Below are positions 5,483 through 49,268 of a stretch of DNA of 64,000 nucleotides, piece after piece (position 1 is the first letter of the stretch; the number at the start of each line of letters is the position of its first letter). Location: the UHGV virus genome UHGV-0179803; one strand, written 5' to 3'. The position numbers and the translations under genes are program-made. The DNA comes from a virus. Below the pieces are notes generated by a model. That model ran no database searches and was not told the origin of the DNA. It saw nothing but the letters and a program-made list of their open reading frames with translations.

Positions 5483-5830
5483 ATGGTGGACAAAAAAGAG
5501 AAAGCGAAAAAACGTCGTCGCAGGGGCAGACCCCTGAAAGAGGAATCAAACGCTATTCAACTTGATAAAAATCTTATTGAGATGAAAGAAGCGTTCATTG
5601 CAATGGTTCCAGAGGCACACAAAGTTCTCCGCGATATGATGAATAACCCCAAAACGAAAGAAAACATTCGTCAGGGCATAGCAACATACGTTCTGGAGAA
5701 AGCTGCTGCCATGCAGGAAGAGTACGACGAAATGTTCGGGGAAGAGGAAGAAGAATCTACTGTTGTAGATGCGACCCCAACACCGTTCTCTCCGTTTACT
5801 ACAGAGATTATCCCGATCAACGATCAGTAA
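5483..5830 (+). CDS. small protein with basic N-terminus (KKRRRRGRP) and acidic C-terminus; possible DNA-binding protein or small terminase subunit
   Basis: RBS GGAGG before ATG; composition only; lies upstream of the packaging genes. Confidence 0.4.
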   Translation: MVDKKEKAKKRRRRGRPLKEESNAIQLDKNLIEMKEAFIAMVPEAHKVLRDMMNNPKTKENIRQGIATYVLEKAAAMQEEYDEMFGEEEEESTVVDATPTPFSPFTTEIIPINDQ

Positions 5831-5899
5831 TCATTGTTGTGTAGCCTTGGAGAGAGAAGAGTGCTTGGGCGGTAAGCACTGGAAACACCGCTCAGTAGT

Positions 5900-5975
5900 G
5901 CCCCGTTAGTTCAAATGGAAGAACAGTGGCCTTCTAAGCCATAGGTTACAGGTTCGAGTCCTGTACGGGGTGCCA
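5900..5975 (+). tRNA. tRNA-Arg (anticodon TCT)
   Basis: hand-folded cloverleaf: acceptor GCCCCGT/ACGGGGT, D-stem GTTC/GAAC, anticodon loop CTTCTAA, T-arm ACAGG-TTCGAGT-CCTGT, 3' GCCA. Confidence 0.8.
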
Positions 5976-6019
5976 ACACTTTTAACCAAAACACTAATCA
6001 TTTAAAGGAACTTAGTAAT

Positions 6020-6286
6020 ATGTATACATTAAAAATCGTAGAACGTGTAATGCCAGAAGGTGAACCGGAAGATACCAACATTCCATCTAAACCGTATCTT
6101 CGTGAGTCATACTATGACATGAATAAAAACACAGATGTTATCTTCTATGAACCAAATCAGGAAGGTATCATCGCTGTGGTAATGGATGGTGAACAGAAGG
6201 TCTACATTTATGATGACACTTCTGCTTACCTGATGAATGAAAACGCTGTTACAGTACGTATCATTCATCGTGTTCAGTTCAACTAA
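6020..6286 (+). CDS. hypothetical protein
   Basis: ORF track; RBS-like AAAGGAAC; followed by hairpin terminator. Confidence 0.4.
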   Translation: MYTLKIVERVMPEGEPEDTNIPSKPYLRESYYDMNKNTDVIFYEPNQEGIIAVVMDGEQKVYIYDDTSAYLMNENAVTVRIIHRVQFN

Positions 6287-6353
6287 GGTGGTTTCAGTTC
6301 ATAATCAGTTTCATTGATACATCTCCTTTCATTGGTTTATAAGTTTTAACCCG

Positions 6354-6386
6354 CCCCGTTGACTGAAATGGTCACGGGGTTTTTTA
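6354..6386 (+). terminator. rho-independent terminator
   Basis: CCCCGT...ACGGGG hairpin followed by TTTTTTATTT. Confidence 0.5.
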
Positions 6387-6407
6387 TTTGTATGTTCTGG
6401 AGGTTTC

Positions 6408-6809
6408 GTGCCAGCAGTACTTGCATTCCTGATAAAATATAAGCGCGTGATAAAATGGACTATCGCGGCTGTCTTACTGGTTGTAGCCTGCGCTGGAGTG
6501 CACAGTTGGTACAACACCCAGATACAAAATGCCTACAACGAAGGGGTCGCTGTAACAGAGCAGAAATGGGATAAACTGATGATGCAGCAGAAGCTACAGG
6601 CCAACCAGACGAAGTTGGAACACGCTTACGAAGTCAGAGAGCTTGAGCAAAAGCTGGCTAACATGCAGAACGCCATGAACGCTCCTGGAGCTTTTGGTGG
6701 GGCTACACAACAGCAGTTCCAGTCATCTCCAGAAGGGCAACAGAACCGGATCCCAGATAAAGTGATCGATATCTACAACGAAAGTATTAACTCGGAGGTG
6801 CAGCAATGA
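6408..6809 (+). CDS. i-spanin (Rz-like inner-membrane spanin component)
   Basis: GTG start after GGAGG; N-terminal TM segment WTIAAVLLVVACAGV then a Q/E/K-rich coiled-coil region; overlaps the next gene by 4 nt. Confidence 0.55.
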   Translation: MPAVLAFLIKYKRVIKWTIAAVLLVVACAGVHSWYNTQIQNAYNEGVAVTEQKWDKLMMQQKLQANQTKLEHAYEVRELEQKLANMQNAMNAPGAFGGATQQQFQSSPEGQQNRIPDKVIDIYNESINSEVQQ

Positions 6810-7102
6810 GGTGGTTACTTGCATTAGCGATTGCACTCACGTTTTCTATGGCCCTGGTAGGTTGTAGCTCACCTAAAAGTACGCCAGTTACAGTTGCACC
6901 GCAGAAAGTTGAACAACTTGCTGTAGAGCCTCCTGCGGCAGCTATGATCCCACCAGCAATAGCTATCCCCTTGGTGAAAGGTGCACCAGATGCGGATAAC
7001 TCTGCAATTATGAGGCAGAACAATCTCTCCTGTAGCAATGATCGTGCCAAATTAATCATCTTGCAGGATTATGTAAAATCTTTATTCAATAAGGAGAATT
7101 AA
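6806..7102 (+). CDS. o-spanin (Rz1-like outer-membrane lipoprotein)
   Basis: signal peptide ending in lipobox LVGC, proline-rich mature part; immediately downstream of and overlapping the i-spanin gene. Confidence 0.6.
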   Translation: MRWLLALAIALTFSMALVGCSSPKSTPVTVAPQKVEQLAVEPPAAAMIPPAIAIPLVKGAPDADNSAIMRQNNLSCSNDRAKLIILQDYVKSLFNKEN

Positions 7103-8217
7103 TGGCTAAAATGTATGGCCCATGCTCCCGTAAACAACAAATGATTCTGGAAAATGATGCCGACTTCCTGATCATTGGTGGGGCAGCGGGTTGTTTGTCA
7201 ATGCGACATGAGGTGATGACACCTAACGGGTGGATCAGAATATCGGAATGGGATGGTCAAGATATCCTCCAGTTTGATAAAGAAACTGGTAAGGCCATGT
7301 TTATCCAGCCTGAAGAGTTTGTTAAGCTGGAATGCGACAAACTAACCAGGATTGTGCAGGATGGTATTTGTCAGGAATTATCCGACGAGCACACAGTTCT
7401 GTACGTCCCAGAAGACGGAACAGCTTACGGTACACTTAATTTCGGAGAAGTGGCTGAACAGTATGCTAACGGTGAGTTGGCAATGCGTATGCAGACCACG
7501 TTTGTGAACATGGGTGGTACTGGCCTTGGCATTTCTGACGAAGAGCTGAAAGAAAGGGCAAGATATTACAAATTCACAGATGAGTGGTATAATTGTGATC
7601 GTCGTCAGTTGTTGCAGATCTGGTATGAGATTTACCTGAACGGTAATGATCCCCATGCCTACGTTGTTCCAACGAAAGAACAGGCTGATTTCTTGCAATA
7701 CCTCGGATCATCTTTAGGTTTCAACGCACAGATCTTCTTCGAAGAAGGTTACAAAGTTGTGTTCTCTAATGAACGTGCAGGTACGATTGCTCTTAATAAC
7801 GATGCAACGTTCGAAGAGTTTGAGCCGGAAGATGGTTACAAATATTGTTTTGCTACCACAACAGGCTATTTTATCACCAGACTGGAAAACTGCATTGCAG
7901 TGACTGGTAACAGTGGTAAATCCTTTCTTCTACAGCTTCTCCCACTAAAGATGATAGATGACCCCAACACTTCTGTGGTGATGTTCCGTAGGACAACTCC
8001 ACAACTGGAAGGTGAAGGTGGTCTGTGGCCTAAAGCACTGAGTGTGTATCTGGATCTTCCTGAGTACATGAGGCCGAAATTCAGAGAGAAAGACCATAAG
8101 TTTACTTTTCCATATTATGATGCAAAGACGGGCAAATGGAATAAGAAAAGAGACGGAGCAGTAATCAAATACTGCCATATGGAATACGTCCAAGATAAGC
8201 TGAATCATCAAGGGTAA
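7102..8217 (+). CDS. terL: large terminase subunit, N-terminal (ATPase) part, carrying an in-frame intein-like insertion
   Basis: flanks of the insertion rejoin as IIGGAAG|SGKSFLL, a GxxxxGKS Walker A; the reading frame stops at 8217 where intron-like sequence begins. Confidence 0.65.
   Translation: MAKMYGPCSRKQQMILENDADFLIIGGAAGCLSMRHEVMTPNGWIRISEWDGQDILQFDKETGKAMFIQPEEFVKLECDKLTRIVQDGICQELSDEHTVLYVPEDGTAYGTLNFGEVAEQYANGELAMRMQTTFVNMGGTGLGISDEELKERARYYKFTDEWYNCDRRQLLQIWYEIYLNGNDPHAYVVPTKEQADFLQYLGSSLGFNAQIFFEEGYKVVFSNERAGTIALNNDATFEEFEPEDGYKYCFATTTGYFITRLENCIAVTGNSGKSFLLQLLPLKMIDDPNTSVVMFRRTTPQLEGEGGLWPKALSVYLDLPEYMRPKFREKDHKFTFPYYDAKTGKWNKKRDGAVIKYCHMEYVQDKLNHQG
7192..7911 (+). other. candidate intein (240 aa) inserted in the terminase P-loop
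   Basis: begins with Cys (CLSMRHEV...), ends with Asn followed by Ser (..IAVTGN|SGKS); removing it restores a canonical Walker A. Confidence 0.5.
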
Positions 8218-8742: not shown

Positions 8743-9036
8743 ATGGGAATGTGTAAAACTAAAAAATGTGTAGATTGCCAGAGAGTCCTACCTCTTGAGG
8801 ATTTCTTTTTATCTTCTAAGAGTAATGATGGGTACTCTGGTACATGCAAGGAATGCTATATGTACTACAGAAAGAATGGATCTCGTAGAAACAAGGATAT
8901 GGTTAAGAGAGATGATGCAGCAGCGTTTATTCAAGATTTGCTAGAGAAAGGTGAGCTTTTTGAATGCAAATCTTGTCATAAAAGTATGCTCGCTGACAAT
9001 TTTACACAAAACGTGATTATGGTAGGGTATATCTAG
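8743..9036 (+). CDS. Cys-rich zinc-finger-like protein, intron-encoded
   Basis: CVDCQ...GTCKEC and CKSCH motifs; RBS GGGAGGATGGGA-ATG; inside the intervening sequence. Confidence 0.4.
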   Translation: MGMCKTKKCVDCQRVLPLEDFFLSSKSNDGYSGTCKECYMYYRKNGSRRNKDMVKRDDAAAFIQDLLEKGELFECKSCHKSMLADNFTQNVIMVGYI

Positions 9037-9053: not shown

Positions 9054-9338
9054 ATGTGTGAGAAGTTCTATCAGCTTGAGAAGAAATTTCACATAACAAA
9101 AGACGAATATTTTCGTCTACTCTCAGATCAAGATTATAAATGTGCCATTTGCGGGATATCACTTGATGAGTATAGGTCGCAAGGGTACAGAGATTTCTTT
9201 AGTGTTGATCATGACCATAAGACTGGCGCTGTAAGAGGTTTGCTTTGTGATAAGTGTAACAGAGCTTTAGGTTTTTTCCAGGAGGATGAGGAAACTCTTC
9301 TTAAAGCGGCAGAGTATTTACACACTCATAAGATATAG
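9054..9338 (+). CDS. HNH / endonuclease VII-family homing-endonuclease-like protein
   Basis: motif CAICG...SVDHDHKTGAVRGLLCDKCNRALG matches the EndoVII/HNH signature (DHDH-x-TG-x-RG-x-LC-xx-CN). Confidence 0.7.
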   Translation: MCEKFYQLEKKFHITKDEYFRLLSDQDYKCAICGISLDEYRSQGYRDFFSVDHDHKTGAVRGLLCDKCNRALGFFQEDEETLLKAAEYLHTHKI

Positions 9339-9454: not shown

Positions 9455-10534
9455 ATGAGGTCGAAATCGAAATACTCTTCACGGATGGTGATCAGCTGTA
9501 ACCCGGATTCTGAACACTATTTAGCCAAACTGGTTCGTTGGTGGCTTGACGACGAGGGCTACCCAGATGAAAGCAAGTGTGGCGTTAAGCGCTATTTCAT
9601 CCGTAGGGATGGGGAATTTATCTTCGGCGATACGCCAGAAGAGTTGATCGAGAAGTATACCTATGTTAACGGCAAAGGTGTTGAGATAATCCCAAAACCA
9701 CTCTCTATCGCTTTTATCGGTGCAACAATCCACGATAACCCCATCTGCTTGCGTGATAACCCAGAATATCTTGCATTCCTGGAAGGTCTGCCAGAGCTGG
9801 AAAAAGCACAACTCCTCTACGGTAACTGGTTCGCTAAGCCTGAAGGTGCAAACTATTTCAGTCGCACATTCTTGAAAGATGCGGATCATGTCCCCCTCGG
9901 AGCAGTTTCTGTAAGAGCATGGGATAAAGCTGGTACAGAACGTACCTCTGGCAACAAATTCCCCGACTATACAGCCAGTATCAAGGTCAGTAAGGATAGT
10001 GATGGTTACTACTACATCTCCGGTGACTATTGCCCTGAAAACGTAGATGATGGCAGATATTCTACGGGCTTGCACGGTAAGTTCTGCAAGAAAGCTGGGG
10101 AACGTGATGTTATTATCAAGAAACAGGCAGAGTTTGATGGTGAGGACTGCGTAATTGTCTTCTCTGTGGACCCCGGTCAGGCAGGTAAGAGTGAGTTTCT
10201 TACTTCATCTCGTAAACTTCTTGCCGGAGGGTTCAGGGTAGAAGAAGACCCAATGCCGTCTAACAAATCAAAACTCACCCGTTTCTCCCCGTTTGCCAAC
10301 CTTGCCCAACAAGGGATGGTGCGGCTTGTCCGGTCAAGTTTCGACCCGGATACACTGGAAGCATTTTTGACAGAGCTGGAGAAATTTAACGGCGAACGGT
10401 CAACCTTTAGCCGTAAAGATGATTGGGCTGACTCCATTGCTTCTGCAATTAACTACCTTGAAAAAGAGGAAGTTGCTATGCCATGTGTTATTCCGAAGAT
10501 TGTTTCACCCTCTATGTATAAGAGGATGATTTAA
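9455..10534 (+). CDS. terL: large terminase subunit, C-terminal part (nuclease domain exon)
   Basis: frame is open from 9332; contains ISCNPDSEHY, RAWDKAGT and DDWADSIASA acidic motifs expected of a terminase RNase-H-like nuclease domain; true 5' end depends on the splice junction. Confidence 0.65.
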   Translation: MRSKSKYSSRMVISCNPDSEHYLAKLVRWWLDDEGYPDESKCGVKRYFIRRDGEFIFGDTPEELIEKYTYVNGKGVEIIPKPLSIAFIGATIHDNPICLRDNPEYLAFLEGLPELEKAQLLYGNWFAKPEGANYFSRTFLKDADHVPLGAVSVRAWDKAGTERTSGNKFPDYTASIKVSKDSDGYYYISGDYCPENVDDGRYSTGLHGKFCKKAGERDVIIKKQAEFDGEDCVIVFSVDPGQAGKSEFLTSSRKLLAGGFRVEEDPMPSNKSKLTRFSPFANLAQQGMVRLVRSSFDPDTLEAFLTELEKFNGERSTFSRKDDWADSIASAINYLEKEEVAMPCVIPKIVSPSMYKRMI

Positions 10535-39551: not shown

Positions 39552-39576
39552 AATTTAAGTTTCTCCTGATACATTA

Positions 39577-39598
39577 CCCCGCTTCGGCGGGGTTTTTT
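39577..39598 (+). terminator. rho-independent terminator (UUCG tetraloop)
   Basis: CCCCGCTTCGGCGGGG then TTTTTTG. Confidence 0.6.
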
Positions 39599-43952: not shown

Positions 43953-44993
43953 ATGGCTAAACCTAGTTTTCCTCTGGAGATATGGGCAGCGGAGGATCAA
44001 ATCCTCCCCAACTCCCATAAACAGAACAAGATGCGCCCCATTGACGACCTCTGGAGAAAAGGTTGGGATAAAGGGCAGAAACCATCGTGTGAAGAACTGA
44101 ACTATCTCCTGAACATGATGGCTACCTGGGCTAAATACATTTCTGAAGATCAGATCCCGTCTATGGAAGGACGTTATCTTATTAAGGACAACAACCTGAG
44201 TGATCTTCTGAATGTAGAGATTGCCCGTAAAAACCTTGGCATTGTTACCCAGGCTGAGACTGACGCTCGTTACGTTAAGATCACTGGTGACACAATGACA
44301 GGCCCTCTGGGGTTGCAACGTATTAATTTTGCGGCAGCGGAAACAGATGCGGCATGGATAGAAACCACAATCAGCCCAGATAAAACCTTGTTGGACTTCT
44401 GTCTGATGGATAACGTTGGTTCATTTGACGATGGTGGTACTTCCACAGTTGATGCTTTCCGTTGGAGATTCCAGCCTACACAACCAGATATCAACCCAGA
44501 GTTTACACTGATGCACCTGAATGCTATCTCTGTTAACCGTGCACTTCTCAAAGTCATCGGTAACATTGAAGCACAAGATAACGTGCGTTCCAACACAGTC
44601 ACCATCACTGGTACAGCTTCCTTCGGTAACGTCAGCGTATCGAGCCAGTTGACCACAGGTAGCTTCTATGCTAACGGTGGTTCCAACGTTGATAACATGA
44701 CAGTCCGTAGCCAGTATTGTGTGGTTGGTGGTCGCCATGTAGTTCGTTCAGTCAACGGTGTGAACGCAGATGGTAATGGTAACCTGACTATCAGTATCCC
44801 AGCTTCAGGCGTTCAGGATATTCGCTGCGGCGGTATGTTGATCGATGGGGTTTCTGATAACAGGGTACGTCCGGGTTATGTTATGAGAGGATGGGCTAAT
44901 GGTAATAAAAAAGAACTCCGTGGTGCAGGTTACTGGGCAGCTCCGCTACAGAAACTTGTTAACGGACAGTGGATTACCGTTCAGACATTATAA
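43953..44993 (+). CDS. tail fiber / receptor-binding protein, paralog 1
   Basis: N-terminus MAKPSFPLEIWAAED and C-terminus GYVMRGWANGNKKELRGAGYWAAPLQKLVNGQWITVQTL shared with 46032..47096; NLSDLLNVEIARKNLG fiber-type motif. Confidence 0.6.
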   Translation: MAKPSFPLEIWAAEDQILPNSHKQNKMRPIDDLWRKGWDKGQKPSCEELNYLLNMMATWAKYISEDQIPSMEGRYLIKDNNLSDLLNVEIARKNLGIVTQAETDARYVKITGDTMTGPLGLQRINFAAAETDAAWIETTISPDKTLLDFCLMDNVGSFDDGGTSTVDAFRWRFQPTQPDINPEFTLMHLNAISVNRALLKVIGNIEAQDNVRSNTVTITGTASFGNVSVSSQLTTGSFYANGGSNVDNMTVRSQYCVVGGRHVVRSVNGVNADGNGNLTISIPASGVQDIRCGGMLIDGVSDNRVRPGYVMRGWANGNKKELRGAGYWAAPLQKLVNGQWITVQTL

Positions 44994-45009: not shown

Positions 45010-45627
45010 ATGATTAAAATAGCTACAGGTTTTGAGTTGTATGATCCGCAAGAGCCTCGCCCAGAGGTGTTGGCTCTTGATGAAGATCAGCCACAAACCT
45101 TGGAATTAACAGAGCAGGAGATTGAAGATTACGCTCGCTATTCTGCTTACTTCCTTCGCAACGAGCACGGTGACTGGTATGCCCAGACCCGAGAATTACA
45201 GCAGATTGCCCAGGAATCTGGAGTAGAATACCTGTTTGCAGTCATAGAAGCTGATGGTTTACTGAAAATTGTAACCACGGACCCAACAGGTATTTTCCCC
45301 AGCAACGGTCTTCAAGTCCTGCATGGTAAACGAGAGGAGTTCCCGGAAGACATTGAAAACATGATCAATGCCTACCGCTGGAATGGTGAGAAATTTGTTG
45401 TTGATAACAAACCTTACATCGATGCTGCACAACAGGTTGTCGAAGAAGAGTTGCAATGGGCTACAGCAAGGCTTGGAGCTTTCAGCGACATGCTGGACTT
45501 GGATTATATACTCTCTCCTGCACAGGAGCAGTTTGTTAAGGAATTAAAACTTTACAGGATTCATCTACTGGAGATTGATATAAACAAAGCCCCCAACATA
45601 CATATCCCTGATCGCCCAGCCCTCTAA
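45010..45627 (+). CDS. tail fiber assembly chaperone (Tfa-like C-terminal domain)
   Basis: C-terminal LKLYRIHLLEIDINKAPNIHIPDRP resembles the conserved Tfa C-terminal motif (..YRV.L.RVD....PDI.WP..P). Confidence 0.6.
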   Translation: MIKIATGFELYDPQEPRPEVLALDEDQPQTLELTEQEIEDYARYSAYFLRNEHGDWYAQTRELQQIAQESGVEYLFAVIEADGLLKIVTTDPTGIFPSNGLQVLHGKREEFPEDIENMINAYRWNGEKFVVDNKPYIDAAQQVVEEELQWATARLGAFSDMLDLDYILSPAQEQFVKELKLYRIHLLEIDINKAPNIHIPDRPAL

Positions 45628-45636
45628 GGAGGTAAT

Positions 45637-45951
45637 GTGGAACTGGACTTTGGTACGCTTTTTGAGATAATCATGAGCGCTATTGTCCCTATAGGTGTCT
45701 GGATTTTTGGTCAGTGGCACGTAAAATGGAAAGCCGTCTCTAAAAGATTGGATGATTTAGAGAAGGACCTTATTTTGGTGAAAAGCAATATGGTTACGAA
45801 AGACAGACTTGACGCGGTGCTAAATCAGCGTCTTAAAGATATTCAAGATAACCTTGACGAACTAAGGAAAGAGGTCAAAGGTGACGTTAATGGATTGCGT
45901 AGTGATATTCAACAAATTATCCAGATTCTTCTCAGTAACAAGGAGAAATAA
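45637..45951 (+). CDS. membrane-anchored coiled-coil protein (holin or spanin-like candidate)
   Basis: GTG start after AGGAGG; one N-terminal TM segment IIMSAIVPIGVWIFGQW then coiled-coil region. Confidence 0.4.
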   Translation: MELDFGTLFEIIMSAIVPIGVWIFGQWHVKWKAVSKRLDDLEKDLILVKSNMVTKDRLDAVLNQRLKDIQDNLDELRKEVKGDVNGLRSDIQQIIQILLSNKEK

Positions 45952-46031
45952 CCTGCGGCAAGGAAGCCTCTGGTTGCATTTTGAGGAGTTTAGTGCTAAA
46001 ATAATGTCAAGAATTTTAGTCAGGAGAAAAC

Positions 46032-47096
46032 ATGCCAAAACCAACTTATCCGCTTGAGGTGTGGGCATATCAGGATGTGATGCTTGACACCACGCGAGAA
46101 TTAAATAAGGCCCAGCCTAGTAAGGAACAAAGGTTAGCTGGTTGGGACTTCAGTCAGAGAATCGCTGTTGAACATATGAATTTCGAGTTCAATATGATTA
46201 GTAACTGGCTGAAATACTTGAACGAAGAGGTTGTTCCTGGTTGGGATGATCGATTTTTAAAAGTTGCAAATAACCTAGCAGAAATACCGGATAAAGCTGC
46301 TGCAAGACAAAACTTAGGTTGCCTGACAATAGAGGAGATGGATGACCGTTATGTTCACCTAACAGGGGATACCTTGAAAGGTACTATGACTTTAGGGGTT
46401 ACAAGGATTAATTTTAAATCTGCTGATACAGACTCGTGTGCGATTTATTGTTCCACGATTGCAGATACCCCAGGGTATAAAGGTGGGGATAAAACCTATT
46501 TCGATTTTCGTATGGCAGACAACTACGGTACAGATGACATTGAGGCATCTTACTATACAGGCACAGAAGGATTCCGCTACAGATTCCACCCCGCAGGCGG
46601 TAGCTTGTTCACATTGATGAAATTGTGTGCTATCTCTCCAAACCGTGGGAGATTGTCCGTAGTAGGTGACATTATTGCTGCTGATAACTTACGTGCTGGT
46701 TCTATGAATGGTAACACTGTTGATATCTGGAGTACAGCTTCTGTATCAAGTCAGACACTGTGTGGTAACCTCTATACCAACAGTTTTAACTGCGATAGCC
46801 ACACAACCCGTAGTAATTACCATGTTGTAGGTGGAAGACATGTTTGCAGGTCAGTAAACGGTGCCACAGCGGATGGTAACGGCAACTTAACATTAACACT
46901 ACCTCAACCCGCTATCTCTGATGTTCGTTGTGGAGGTATGCTGATAGATGGCACAGGTGATAACCGCGTAAGGGCTGGCTACGTAATGCGTGGTTGGCAG
47001 AATGGTAATAAGAAACAATTGCGTGGCGCTGGCTATTGGGCAGCTCCACTCCAGAAACTGGTAAATGGTCAATGGATCACAGTACAGACATTGTAA
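46032..47096 (+). CDS. tail fiber / receptor-binding protein, paralog 2
   Basis: termini shared with 43953..44993 (MPKPTYPLEVWAYQD ... GYVMRGWQNGNKKQLRGAGYWAAPLQKLVNGQWITVQTL) with a divergent centre. Confidence 0.6.
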   Translation: MPKPTYPLEVWAYQDVMLDTTRELNKAQPSKEQRLAGWDFSQRIAVEHMNFEFNMISNWLKYLNEEVVPGWDDRFLKVANNLAEIPDKAAARQNLGCLTIEEMDDRYVHLTGDTLKGTMTLGVTRINFKSADTDSCAIYCSTIADTPGYKGGDKTYFDFRMADNYGTDDIEASYYTGTEGFRYRFHPAGGSLFTLMKLCAISPNRGRLSVVGDIIAADNLRAGSMNGNTVDIWSTASVSSQTLCGNLYTNSFNCDSHTTRSNYHVVGGRHVCRSVNGATADGNGNLTLTLPQPAISDVRCGGMLIDGTGDNRVRAGYVMRGWQNGNKKQLRGAGYWAAPLQKLVNGQWITVQTL

Positions 47097-47104
47097 AGAA
47101 GGGG

Positions 47105-47475
47105 TGATGTTTAAGAAAACCAAAGCCTTTTTGTGGATGTTGGTCGCAGCACCAGACGATCCCGACAAGGTATCTCAGACCAAGTTGTGGTCCAATATAG
47201 GTATGCTAGCTATGACTATCGTTTTCCTGCACATGGGGTACACTAATACTTTGCAGGAATGGTATGCATGGATCTATGCTCCTTCAGTTGCTTGCCCACA
47301 ACTGATCAGCAAGTTTATTTCACTTCGTTGGGGCTGGAGAAGTCCTTCTTTTGGTGAACGCTACCCAGATGAGGAGTATCCTGGTAGCAGATACTCAGGA
47401 GATTGTAACTACAGGCATTCTGAATGTTCTGACTCCCCCATTGAACCAGAAGATTATAGAGATTCAAGGAGATAA
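47105..47475 (+). CDS. small single-TM protein (hypothetical)
   Basis: ATG after AGAAGGGG; hydrophobic segment IGMLAMTIVFLHMGY; stop abuts the start of the next gene. Confidence 0.35.
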
Positions 47476-49231
47476 CGTGGCTCAAGATATGACAAACTTT
47501 GAGGAGGCCGTGGATCAGGTCATAATTGATTCTGAGCGCCTCCATCTGGTTGTCAATGGTACTGCCGTGGATGAAGTTGTGGTAGAGGATGGGACAACCA
47601 TCCCTACCGTCCGTAAGGCACTACTTGATAACCTGTATTTTAAAACTCCACCAATCCCGTGGGTATATGGTTCTTCCACCACAGTATTTAACCAGATTTA
47701 TGAATACAAAGCGGATGGAAAAATCACATGGTGGTATGCTCCTGGAGCATCTAAATCCACACCAGTGCGCTTGCCAGCAGACCCTTTCACCTCTACCGCG
47801 TGGAGGTTGTATACTGATGCCAACGTGCTTGCTGAATTCTATGCTAAACTGAGTAGCCCACTCTTCCAGGGGGATCCGCGTGTTCCGACACCGCCGATGG
47901 ATGATAAATCTCTGTCCATTGCCAACACCACATTCGTTGTTGACTATGTAGACAGCATTTTTGAAGCTATGGCTGGTATGCAGGTCACAGTTGGTTCCCT
48001 AGTTGTTCGTGGCTTATCAGAATTAGCTAACACTATTATTGACGGTACTTTAACTGTACGTGGTCCTTTAAATGCTTCCGACTTTGCTGGGCGTTTCAAA
48101 GAGTTGACTTTAACAGGTAAAGATTCCGCTATCAATTTTAACTGGACAGACAGGAACCATCCTAACTGGACCTCCACAGCGCTGGATCCTTACAACATCG
48201 AGACTCACCTGTTGACCTCTGATGTGATCCACAATGGTGCTCCGGTAAGTGATAACACCACTGTTCACTTCGATGGTCGCGGTAACAACTTCTTTGACTA
48301 CGTTTATATTCGGGGGAATTCTCAGAAAGATGTTCAGGAACCCACCCTGACGGTTGACGGTGTAACTCAAGTCAAAGATCTGAAAGTAACAGGTAAAGTT
48401 GAAGGTATTGTTCACTCTGTAGATGGTCTGGATATTTACCCGAACTATCTGGAAACAACTAACGATGCCCGTGTCAACGGTGACTTGCAGGTTGGTGGAT
48501 CAGTGGTTATTCAGGGTAATGCAATGGTTCAGGATTTGTCTACCAACACATTCAGATCTAACCAGCAGGCTACTTTTGAGGGTAACGGTATTGTTGCCAA
48601 TAAAGCTGCGATTACGACTTTAACTGGTACAACTGCCACCATTGATACTGGTAACTTCACTAATTGTAATGTGAATCACAACTTGCAGGTAAATGGGGAT
48701 GTAAGCCTGAACGCAGAGGGTAATGGTACGACTTATGTTCATAACATCCAGGTCTCTGGCACACTGACAGGTTGGATGCCGGATTACACAGGTAAAACTC
48801 TCAACTGTGGCGGTGTGAACGCATCAGGTAACATCAGCATCAATGGCGACCTCAGCGTTGGTGGTAGCACTACAATTGGGAAGATCCGTACAACCAAACT
48901 GGAATTCGAATCTGAGGATATCGCTGGCGCTACGGGGACATGGACCCCATCAGGAAATGCTAACATGTACGTTGTTGAAGTTACTGGCGACCTGAACGTA
49001 GCAACATGGCCTGGCGTTACAGCAGCTTCAGAAGAGGATAAACCTTATCCGTTCTCAGTGGTGATTTATTTCCGTCAGGATGCTACAGGGCATCAGGTCA
49101 CATTCAGTGATAAGTATGCAATCTTGTCTGCAACTCCTGTAGTTAACAACAAAGCCAATAGCGTGACCCTTTGTCAACTAACCTACCCTGGCTTCGGCGA
49201 CATTGTGGACGTTATTATTGCACAACGTTAA
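47476..49231 (+). CDS. tail fiber/spike-like protein (beta-rich, 585 aa)
   Basis: GTG start 5 nt after AAGGAG; repetitive N/G/T/V-rich beta-strand-like sequence; the track ORF start at 47351 lacks an RBS. Confidence 0.5.
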
Positions 49232-49237
49232 TTAATT

Positions 49238-49268
49238 AGCCTCTCCTGCGGGAGAGGCTTTACTGTTT
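49238..49268 (+). terminator. hairpin (attenuator/terminator-like)
   Basis: AGCCTCTCCTGCGGGAGAGGCT followed by TTACTGTTT; weak T-tract. Confidence 0.35.

Follow-up and report, generated by a model that had tools for sequence, protein, structure and literature searches.

Two small genes interleaved with the tail fibre genes of an uncultivated rV5-like myophage encode conserved proteins, here called p1 and p2, that may have a late role in lysis. We give this reading a probability of roughly 0.35. It is our best guess because the endolysin of these phages looks soluble, the spanin genes lie beside TerL and a holin has never been identified. Both genes are already catalogued as members of families. 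The descriptive part of the analysis, comprising the identity, conservation and context of p1 and p2, we regard as secure.

The window, a stretch of 64,000 nucleotides from the virus genome UHGV-0179803, shows complete synteny with rV5 and with the BASEL phage Bas59, and corresponds gene for gene to Bas59 and FFH2. A megablast search with the locus gave no match in 50,697 phage records, and relatives were found only by protein-level search. The relatives of this lineage, which is uncultivated and divergent, are on metagenomic contigs of 118-142 kb. In the window, p1 and p2 belong to an operon with baseplate and fibre genes that is bounded by terminator-like hairpins:

39576..39593, + strand, terminator-like hairpin at the operon start (7-pair stem, 6 GC pairs, then TTTTTTG)
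43953..44993, + strand, short tail fibre 1 (STF1), orthologue of rV5 gp33 (phrog_4465, 1.4e-150)
45010..45627, + strand, Tfa, orthologue of rV5 gp32 (PF02413 Caudo_TAP, 5.4e-6; phrog_136, 3e-19)
45637..45951, + strand, p1, 104 aa, orthologue of rV5 gp31
46032..47096, + strand, short tail fibre 2 (STF2), orthologue of rV5 gp30 (phrog_4465, 4.9e-114)
47107..47475, + strand, p2, 122 aa plus stop, orthologue of rV5 gp29
47477..49231, + strand, third fibre, orthologue of rV5 gp28 (phrog_4549, 4.9e-207)
49238..49259, + strand, terminator-like hairpin at the operon end (9-pair stem, 6 GC pairs)

The first hairpin ends the preceding transcription unit. No comparable terminator was found between 39593 and 49238, no structure in the spacer between p1 and STF2 (z = +1.14) and no strong promoter proper to p1 or p2 within the operon. 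From its gene content we infer a late structural operon, with putative late expression of p1 and p2. The profile matches bear out the initial annotation in naming the gene ahead of p1 as Tfa and in describing the two small genes as interleaved with fibre genes, since they are flanked by two phrog_4465 matches and one to phrog_4549. STF1 is 74% identical to Bas59_0034, and over its first 104 residues it matches the short tail fibre of phiTE (PDB 9cuy). STF2 is a paralogue of STF1 with which it has the C-terminus in common. The third fibre begins with a GTG at 47477, 2 nt past the p2 stop codon, behind the ribosome-binding site AAGGAGA.

The open reading frame of p1, its 104 aa and its N-terminal transmembrane (TM) helix after the Tfa gene had been annotated with exact coordinates. 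It starts with a GTG, 4 nt 3' of AAGGAGG. One clear TM domain (TMD) is formed by a hydrophobic helix at about residues 8-27 (Kyte-Doolittle (KD) 19-residue maximum 1.88), but the C-terminal part is a 77-residue coiled coil. The coiled-coil domain, also claimed from the start, is evident in the amphipathic helices after the TM segment from a heptad periodicity at residues 30-52, where all a/d positions (100%) are hydrophobic, and a hendecad periodicity at residues 55-104, where 76% of core positions are hydrophobic versus 12% elsewhere. A low-confidence AlphaFold2 model (pLDDT 64) has helices at residues 5-50 and 55-103, and a Foldseek search of it against viral structures gave no match. The N-terminal flank of the TM helix has a net charge of -1 to -3, being -2 in p1, and contains no basic residue in the window protein; the first 15 residues past the helix carry net +3 and the C-terminal domain net +2. 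The charge-sign pattern around the helix is kept in most family members. This predicts an N-out/C-in topology with a cytoplasmic coiled coil. p1 would accordingly be a bitopic inner-membrane protein with about 7-10 acidic residues outside and one anchor helix, and its cytoplasmic part probably a helical hairpin of about 77 residues bearing the only conserved motifs, LEK and VTKD.

p1 matches the phrog_5345 profile (E = 4e-34) along its entire length, residues 1-103 aligning to profile positions 1-103 of 104. The invariant residues of the family are D4, L41, E42, K43, I46, D59, K67, R77 and K81; sequence conservation is confined to the cytoplasmic helices and does not extend to the TM segment. 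A TM helix is nevertheless present in every genus, Aeromonas phages included after correction of a record frameshift: the apparently TM-less homologue in Aeromonas phage 4L372D is an artefact of a 1-nt frameshift in that record. Likewise, the "hydrolase" beside the p1 homologue in the Klebsiella record OY757067.1 reflects an annotation out of register with its sequence. A phmmer search against 1.84 billion representative proteins returned 16 matches, consisting of rV5-like relatives and unrelated proteins. The latter share an 11-residue repeat of the LRxEVKGD type, which we read as compositional and not as homology.

The second gene is real, but not as it was first delimited. The initial annotation described a 123-aa single-TM protein at 47105..47475; position 47105 is out of frame, with five stop codons in that interval, and the start is instead an ATG at 47107, behind AAGGGG, which gives 122 aa. 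Its single-TM character is marginal, as the best 19-residue hydropathy window is 1.26. Only 10 of the 66 p2 family members reach KD 1.6; the mean maximum in the family is 1.34, and the second helix averages 0.94. Consistent with this, the gene table of the rV5 paper lists gp31 with a TMD and gp29 with no TMD entry. The protein has a basic N-terminal amphipathic helix, followed by weakly hydrophobic helices at residues 24-45 and 51-74. Its C-terminal tail of about 45 residues, specific to this lineage, is acidic, rich in Tyr and Ser and ends in RR. We infer a small protein whose basic N-terminus is inside the cell and whose two weakly hydrophobic, very conserved helices form a hairpin. The AlphaFold2 model contains four short helices at low confidence (pLDDT 55), and Foldseek against viral structures retrieved one family member and otherwise noise.

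p2 matches phrog_1322 (E = 1.1e-26). In two alignments the invariant residues of its family are W28, G32, F40, G44, W52, L66, L73 and G76, all of which are kept in p2. Some relatives carry the label DUF2644 (PF10841), which we reject for this family: the window protein has no match, and only one of the 66 family members reaches E = 0.1, at 13.4 bits against a Pfam gathering threshold of 22 bits. We found no paper describing DUF2644.

Homologues of p1 and p2 occur in 221 and 375 phage records, respectively, so these ORFs are not products of chance. Both families are core genes of rV5-like, phi92-like and Plateaulakevirus (Aeromonas) myophages, and are present in single copy across phages of E. 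coli, Klebsiella, Pectobacterium and Aeromonas. Their orthologues include PVP-SE1 gp44/gp42, phiTE_238/240 and CB7_33/35, as well as Phi92_gp144. The window proteins and rV5 gp31/gp29 (PHROG 5345/1322) are equal in length, architecture and gene position, except that rV5 gp29 lacks the acidic tail of p2. All 211 database clusters of p2 are on phage contigs of about 115-156 kb. A search of 185,579 bacterial genomes recovered no relatives of either protein apart from one 3.2-kb MAG fragment, and a plasmid collection yielded a single phage-like record of 137 kb. Searches of other contexts, prophage lysis cassettes among them, turned up no family members.

Most genera have one cassette of Tfa, a p1-like gene (gp31), a gene for a four-TM (4-TM) protein and a p2-like gene (gp29), which is probably the ancestral arrangement. 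In the Vequintavirus-like lineage, the window included, the STF2 paralogue occupies the slot of the 4-TM gene, and it is this second short tail fibre that interleaves p1 and p2 with fibre genes. The p1 gene is directly downstream of the short-tail-fibre Tfa throughout, and the STF-Tfa-p1 triad is invariant in all lineages examined. The neighbour of p2 is a fibre or baseplate J, depending on the lineage, and the p1 and p2 homologues lie apart in phi92-like phages.

We looked at the lysis genes of these phages, which are dispersed in rV5-like genomes. The only recognisable ones in the window are a pair directly upstream of TerL:

6408..6809, + strand, i-spanin (phrog_4297, 8e-30)
6806..7102, + strand, o-spanin (phrog_1267, 1.7e-17; lipobox LVGC)

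The Rz-like spanin PHROG matches and the lipobox agree with the spanin pair first annotated at 6408..7102, and spanins are also found beside TerL in rV5, PVP-SE1 and CB7. The initial observation that the window has neither endolysin nor holin holds as well, in that homologues of the rV5-type endolysin, of the cell-wall hydrolase and of the BASEL "putative holin" are all missing from it. The Bas59 endolysin starts MKLDKNVQLRAFFSMISHSEGTD, with no hydrophobic N-terminus and no SAR or signal segment, and the endolysin of the family therefore looks soluble and lambda-R-like. An endolysin with neither segment should need a holin. In the published accounts of rV5, CB7, KPP-1 and Gotham, no holin is identified.

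The published rV5 table assigns a TMD to just two proteins of the late unit (genes 27-81), gp31 and the i-spanin gp67. In the window, KD 1.6 is reached by p1 and the spanins alone among the small, non-overlapping + strand ORFs of the structural region. Other, unverified holin candidates have been proposed elsewhere in the relatives (rV5 gp129, Bas59_0111 and CB7_82). A further named holin, Hol 46 of Aeromonas phage PZL-Ah152, was set aside as it comes from an unrelated 41-kb phage. Neither p1 nor p2 matched a holin family in Pfam, PHROGs or NCBIfam, and profile comparison revealed no similarity to any antiholin or releasin family. Scans of p1, p2 and their relatives with Pfam, NCBIfam and PADLOC gave only sub-threshold coiled-coil and TM noise, including a Phage_holin_3_6 match at chance level (E = 0.07) in one of 66 p2 relatives.

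If p1 and p2 do function in lysis, they would build up in the inner membrane late in the infection cycle and take part in the first step of lysis, at the membrane, either as the holin itself or by assisting or triggering one. p1 would work in the cytoplasm while tethered to the membrane, in the manner of Mu gp25 ("releasin"), and of the two proteins p2 would be the likelier to form the hole. Their joint action would free the soluble lambda-R-like endolysin, and the TerL-adjacent spanins would then complete lysis. Tentatively, p1 and p2, with the phiTE_239-like 4-TM protein where present, might make up a new putative type of holin within a tail fibre operon, in which a p1-like coiled-coil protein controls or triggers a weakly hydrophobic two-helix partner and the endolysin released is soluble and not of the SAR type.

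Three known lysis systems offer partial parallels. The initial annotation had likened the position of p1 to that of the T4 holin gene. T4 holin T is likewise a single-TMD protein encoded just after a fibre and its chaperone in a genome with dispersed lysis genes, and rV5-like phages also possess rIIA and rIIB, as T4 does. However, holin T is a 218-aa N-in/C-out protein whose large periplasmic domain binds RI. The analogy fails because the N-out/C-in topology predicted for p1 is the opposite; p1, at 104 aa, is moreover essentially without a periplasmic part.

A closer likeness is to Mu gp25 (DUF2730, PF10805), a late 99-aa N-out/C-in protein with a 73-aa cytoplasmic domain that is required for lysis. 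Both proteins have about 100 aa, an N-terminal TMD, few periplasmic residues and, by prediction, a helical cytoplasmic domain of about 73-77 residues. Homology is rejected (hhalign probability 1.5%, E = 0.033), and PF10805 matched neither p1 (E up to 0.1) nor two relatives (E up to 10). Mu gp25 is restricted to transposable phages, is encoded within five genes of its endolysin and has an anionic cytoplasmic domain. In contrast, the p1 gene follows Tfa in a phage that is not Mu-like and is far from the endolysin gene, the distance in Bas59 being about 80 kb (gp31 at 37.6 kb, endolysin at 120.2 kb).

The third parallel, between p2 and the class II holins or pinholins (S21-68), consists of small size, a basic N-terminus and a pair of helices with a very short loop between them. 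The weakly hydrophobic first helix and charged C-terminal tail of p2 are pinholin-like, but both of its helices are below normal TMD hydrophobicity and its gene is away from the endolysin. Pinholins also pair with SAR endolysins, whereas the rV5-type endolysin is not SAR and this phage family has none.

Some of the evidence argues against lysis. A mean maximum KD of 1.34 makes the p2 family too weakly hydrophobic for a typical holin TMD. The unconserved TM sequence of p1 and the retention of its cytoplasmic motifs are no less compatible with a specific partner in the cytoplasm than with hole formation. The constant position of p1 after Tfa and the conservation of p2 at the level of baseplate J/I fit a morphogenetic role. 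We also counted against the lysis reading the separation of the two genes in phi92-like phages, the dispensability of the 4-TM cassette member in rV5 and the candidate holins outside the window.

Only narrowly less probable is that p1 and p2 are instead membrane-tethered assembly factors, neither of them kept in the virion. p1 would then be a cytoplasm-facing coiled-coil chaperone working with Tfa on short-tail-fibre trimerisation or attachment, and p2 a helper at the baseplate periphery or fibres, located at the inner face of the membrane. The invariance of the STF-Tfa-p1 triad argues for this, as does the way in which the two core genes stay within the fibre/baseplate module. Relative to Bas59, p1 diverges at the rate of its fibre neighbours (52% identity to Bas59_0036, against 44% for Tfa with Bas59_0035 and 48% for STF2), while p2 tracks baseplate J/I (78% to Bas59_0038 over residues 4-80, against 79%). 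The conserved p1 residues are in the cytoplasmic helices and not in the anchor.

A model for such a factor would be T4 gp57A, a small helical coiled-coil chaperone of fibre trimerisation that is absent from virions and genetically tied to the fibre genes. It has no membrane anchor, unlike p1, and we saw no sequence relation between the two. We know of no precedent for a membrane-anchored tail fibre chaperone, and the p1 anchor, needless for a soluble chaperone, is kept in all genera. Mu has a homologous fibre/Tfa pair (S/U) with no adjoining p1-like gene, and its only protein of the p1 architecture, gp25, is a lysis factor. The change of p2 neighbour between lineages also fits poorly with a dedicated assembly role.

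Published virion inventories of relatives bear on both assembly and structure. Mass spectrometry of CB7 virions detected 26 proteins, among them CB7_31, 36 and 37, but not CB7_33, 34 and 35 or the CB7 Tfa. gp29 and gp31 are absent from the main-text list of the rV5 proteomics, the cryo-EM inventory of phi92 does not include gp144, gp148 or gp149, and no PDB chain, including those of phiTE (9cuy and 9mjn), matches p1, p2 or CB7_33-35. Both families are thus absent from the published virion proteomes and models of CB7, rV5 (as far as its main-text list goes), phi92 and phiTE. Such absence is expected of chaperones, the Tfa of CB7 being undetected too.

PHROG 1322 is placed in the category "moron, auxiliary metabolic gene and host takeover", and genes for small membrane proteins beside receptor-binding genes frequently serve in exclusion, as do T5 llp, cor and P2 fun(Z). 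This would suggest a role in superinfection exclusion or host-membrane takeover, with p1 and p2 as inner-membrane proteins that block DNA entry or modulate envelope stress in the manner of T4 Imm/Sp, HK97 gp15 or PspB-like proteins. The predicted N-out/C-in anchor and cytoplasmic zipper of p1 would indeed resemble the layout of PspB. However, we consider this improbable: both genes are strictly core and single-copy across diverse hosts, with no covariation with receptor-binding proteins, and, embedded in a late structural operon, they lack any strong promoter of their own. They were not found in prophages or, the short MAG fragment apart, in bacterial genomes, and the only PADLOC match was to LeoC on a coiled-coil stretch (E = 0.0015, 16.7 bits).

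Less probable still is that p1 and p2 are minor virion components, small adaptor or decoration proteins of a flexible fibre network that cryo-EM and mass spectrometry missed. Their homologues went undetected in the CB7 proteome although neighbours on both sides were found, and a tail has no evident use for a conserved TM anchor whose charge asymmetry is positive-inside. Mass spectrometry does easily miss small hydrophobic proteins, and phi92 fibres I and II and most phiTE fibres were not resolved by cryo-EM. The names "tail fiber protein" and "putative structural protein" given to the p1 homologue in some GenBank records, and a weak match to phrog_404 "minor tail protein" (E = 0.006), point the same way.

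A reading of p1 as another i-spanin-like protein, with N-in/C-out topology and its coiled coil in the periplasm, is very improbable: its phi92-lineage analogue VEcB gp211 does match phrog_739 "Rz-like spanin" (E = 5e-4) and the TM plus coiled-coil layout is alike, but the charges of p1 are reversed, with basic residues after the TM helix where the true i-spanin of the window has KYKR before it, no lipoprotein or lipobox ORF lies in or after p1, and a complete spanin pair is already present.

Phages of the rV5-like group (Vequintavirinae, Stephanstirmvirinae and relatives) are in wide use as candidates for therapy and biocontrol. We found no paper that identifies an rV5-like holin, and their lysis timing therefore cannot be engineered. 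The late structural operons of these phages encode very few conserved, functionally uncharacterised small proteins that are membrane or membrane-like, and the p1 and p2 families, being among these, provide a short, directly testable list of candidates. If they are assembly factors, they would represent an unusual link of tail morphogenesis to the inner membrane. If the lysis reading is true, p1 and p2 would supply what has long been missing in the rV5, phi92 and Plateaulakevirus myophages, an inner-membrane lysis system.

Protein-level collinearity of the module with rV5, FFH2 and the BASEL phage Bas59, together with closest relatives that are metagenomic contigs of 118-142 kb, identifies the window as part of an uncultivated rV5-like myophage; no close DNA relative was found by megablast. 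Gene for gene, the shared order is baseplate J, a gpI-like protein, a 690-aa deacetylase/TIM-barrel fibre protein, a short tail fibre (STF) and its assembly protein (Tfa), followed by a 104-aa ORF, an STF paralogue, an 88-aa ORF, a fibre and a giant Ig-domain protein. Against Bas59, the proteins are 44% to 79% identical.

The two small proteins among the fibre genes, p1 and p2, are orthologues of rV5 gp31 and gp29, respectively. p1 matches phrog_5345 (E = 4e-34) and shares 52% identity with its Bas59 counterpart, while p2 matches phrog_1322 (E = 1e-26) and is 78% identical to the Bas59 protein across residues 4-80. They are ordinary to the extent that both ORFs are conserved and already catalogued, in a phage group that is well sampled. 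In 2013, rV5 gp31 was annotated as 'membrane protein, 1 TMD', and the gp29 entry was left blank.

Genes discussed here
6408..6809 and 6806..7102, + strand: spanin pair, Rz-like spanin PHROGs, LVGC lipobox
43953..44993, + strand: STF1, phrog_4465 (E = 1e-150)
45010..45627, + strand: Tfa, PF02413 and phrog_136
45637..45951, + strand: p1, 104 aa, GTG start 4 nt past AAGGAGG
46032..47096, + strand: STF2, paralogue of STF1, phrog_4465 (E = 5e-114)
47107..47475, + strand: p2, 122 aa plus stop, ATG after AAGGGG
47477..49231, + strand: third fibre, phrog_4549, GTG at 47477 behind AAGGAGA

The initial annotation was largely right, save for one start coordinate and one overstated transmembrane (TM) call. 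Its coordinates for the p1 ORF, which begins 9 nt beyond the Tfa stop, were exact, and the domain and PHROG matches bear out the surrounding Tfa and fibre genes and the spanin pair at 6408..7102. The p2 gene is real and starts at 47107; translated from the proposed 47105, which is in the wrong frame, the range has five stops.

The spanin pair lies immediately upstream of an intron-split TerL gene (7102..8217 and 9455..10534), with small Cys-rich and HNH-like ORFs in the gap (8743..9036 and 9054..9338). In rV5, TerL is reported to consist of three segments, with a homing endonuclease within one. On the minus strand, 56013..57596 encodes 527 aa comprising a signal peptide, a long coiled-coil stalk and, at the C-terminus, a YadA-like membrane anchor. 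Its matches to PF03895 (E = 4.7e-18) and phrog_17426 ('adhesin') make it look like a trimeric-autotransporter-type outer-membrane adhesin carried by a lytic rV5-like phage; rV5 and Bas59 have no such gene at the equivalent position. A small minus-strand ORF (55314..55541, 61-75 aa) encodes one very hydrophobic helix (Kyte-Doolittle hydropathy, KD, 3.27). It stands directly behind a perfect sigma-70 consensus (55558..55531; TTGACA, 16 nt, TATAAT), adjoins a bidirectional terminator (55113..55131) and had no match in a PHROG search. An early membrane protein is the likely product.

The p1 hydrophobic helix spans approximately residues 8-27 (KD 1.88 over 19 residues; 2.16 over the best 17), and a helix of comparable strength occurs in every genus. 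The flank preceding it is acidic or neutral throughout, with D4 invariant, and basic residues follow it. By the positive-inside rule, this predicts an N-out/C-in topology, which would leave the remaining ~77 residues in the cytoplasm. This part comprises two amphipathic helices, with a perfect heptad pattern at 30-52 and hendecad periodicity at 55-104. An AlphaFold2 model (pLDDT 64) places helices at 5-50 and 55-103, with the break at a conserved MVTKD motif. Except for D4, all invariant residues fall in this predicted cytoplasmic part (LEK, I46, D59, K67, R77 and K81), while the anchor keeps its character but not its sequence.

An apparently TM-less homologue in Aeromonas phage 4L372D was rejected as an exception. 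The record (NC_048771, ~6165..6483) gives the gp31-like product as 93 aa without a TM helix, the TM-coding start (ATG 6165) being cut off from the remainder by a 1-nt shift within GGGGG. A homopolymer sequencing error is the probable cause; the orthologue in phiA009 is intact, at 106 aa with the helix.

Eight residues of p2 (W28, G32, F40, G44, W52, L66, L73 and G76) are invariant across 66 sequences from E. coli to Aeromonas phages. The family is weakly hydrophobic, with a mean best 19-residue KD of 1.34 (at least 1.6 in 10 of 66) and a mean of 0.94 for the second helix. The 'single-TM' description was thus a fair guess rather than established, the AlphaFold2 model also being unconfident (pLDDT 55). 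Charges of +2.3 at the N-terminus and -1 in the inter-helix loop suggest an N-in arrangement, in which helix 1 may run across or into the membrane and helix 2 return after a very short outer loop. Residues 76-122 (47330..47475) add a tail of ~45 residues, acidic, rich in Tyr/Ser/Asp and apparently disordered. Its end (...PEDYRDSRR; motif (E/D)xE(D/N)xR(D/E)xRR) is conserved in the window's metagenomic lineage, to which the tail is confined (homologues P0008-P0016, P0020, P0103 and P0107). In contrast, the gp29-type orthologues of rV5, Seunavirus, Certrevirus and phi92-like phages end ~10 residues past the conserved core.

Strong terminator-like hairpins occur at 39576 and 49238 with none in between, and the 80-nt spacer downstream of p1 is unstructured (z = +1.14). 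Most simply, p1 and p2 would therefore be co-transcribed with the baseplate and fibre genes. Published evidence on relatives places neither protein in the virion. Mass spectrometry of CB7 virions detected 26 proteins, including CB7_31, 36 and 37 on both flanks but not CB7_32-35. The rV5 main-text proteomics list does not include gp29 or gp31, and gp144, gp148 and gp149 go unmentioned in a 2026 phi92 cryo-EM study that assigned 'nearly all' components. No PDB chain matched p1, p2, CB7_33, 34 or 35, including those of phiTE virion entries 9cuy and 9mjn, which contain STF.

Consistent with the initial annotation, the window has no endolysin or recognisable holin: three Bas59 queries (endolysin, cell-wall hydrolase and 'putative holin') gave no tblastn hits in it, and synteny places these genes outside the 64 kb. 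The Bas59 endolysin is lambda-R-like and has no hydrophobic N-terminus. From established lysis biology, an endolysin of this type needs a hole-forming holin. The holin slot is unfilled in the rV5-like family: the rV5 authors reported 'no homolog to a holin' and offered gp129 as a guess, the CB7 authors guessed CB7_82, BASEL annotated Bas59_0111 as a putative holin, and the KPP-1 and Gotham authors found none.

We consider a lysis-related role for p1 and p2 the leading reading, at a probability of roughly 0.35. Besides the unfilled slot, it is favoured by the universal retention of the p1 anchor, the absence of both proteins from virions and the scattering of lysis genes in rV5-like genomes, where the spanins adjoin TerL. 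By precedent, late-operon membrane proteins are overwhelmingly lysis proteins, and gp31 and the i-spanin are the sole TMD proteins of the rV5 late unit in the published table. Mu S and U, homologues of STF and Tfa, also have no p1-like gene beside them. Among characterised proteins, Mu gp25 ('releasin') comes closest in architecture, being a late, 99-aa, N-out/C-in, membrane-tethered cytoplasmic protein needed for lysis. However, no homology to p1 was detectable (no PF10805 match; hhalign probability 1.5%), and p1 does not share its endolysin proximity, transposable-phage genome or anionic domain. The proposed likeness to the T4 holin fails on predicted topology, which for p1 is opposite to that of holin T. 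A holin is still a reasonable, testable hypothesis, with evidence that neither bears it out nor excludes it.

An assembly role is only slightly less probable. Pointing to it are the conservation of the cytoplasmic motifs of p1 but not its anchor sequence, the invariable p1-Tfa linkage, the weak hydrophobicity of p2, and divergence rates that resemble those of Tfa and STF2 for p1 and of baseplate proteins for p2. Exclusion or modulation of the host membrane is unlikely. Minor virion components are less likely again, flexible fibres unseen in maps being the small loophole in the virion evidence. A second i-spanin is very improbable for p1, whose predicted topology is the reverse.

STF, Tfa, p1-like, 4-TM, p2-like and fibre genes follow one another in Seunavirus (SalP219), Certrevirus (CB7), Mydovirus and many metagenomic relatives. 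The 4-TM protein (152-157 aa, 3-5 predicted TM helices; phrog_7451/PF26221 Phage_phiTE_239) had no match in a PDB search. Its gene, at 6312..6785, 9592..10050 and 5541..5999 in loci L005, L006 and L008, always has the gp31-like gene on one side and the gp29-like gene on the other. It is missing from rV5 and the window, where the second STF paralogue occupies its slot; the pair of STF paralogues had already been described by BASEL as peculiar to Vequintavirinae sensu stricto. The p2-like gene of phi92-like phages (Phi92_gp144) is just upstream of baseplate J, and a p1-like analogue follows their Tfa (VEcB gp211, locus L003, 10927..11268; phrog_15210, also phrog_462). The 'lipoprotein' label of this analogue in RefSeq and PHROGs appears wrong, as the protein lacks both cysteine and a lipobox. 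In Klebsiella phage vB_Kpn_K23PH08C2 (OY757067.1, locus L049), the deposited features do not line up with the sequence; the products, strands and pseudogene flags they give are at odds with the syntenic tail-fibre region. From these gene orders, the widespread arrangement is a single small membrane-protein cassette behind Tfa.

Relatives of p1 and p2 were found in 221 and 375 phage records, respectively, all from rV5-like, phi92-like or Plateaulakevirus genomes. A p2 profile search returned 211 clusters, on phage-sized contigs, and an exhaustive p1 phmmer search of 1.84 billion representatives added only compositional coiled-coil matches to such phage relatives. One-genome-per-species bacterial and archaeal contigs contained neither family except on a 3.2-kb phage fragment in a MAG bin. 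p1 and p2 belong to the core gene set of a lytic lineage and are not mobile morons.
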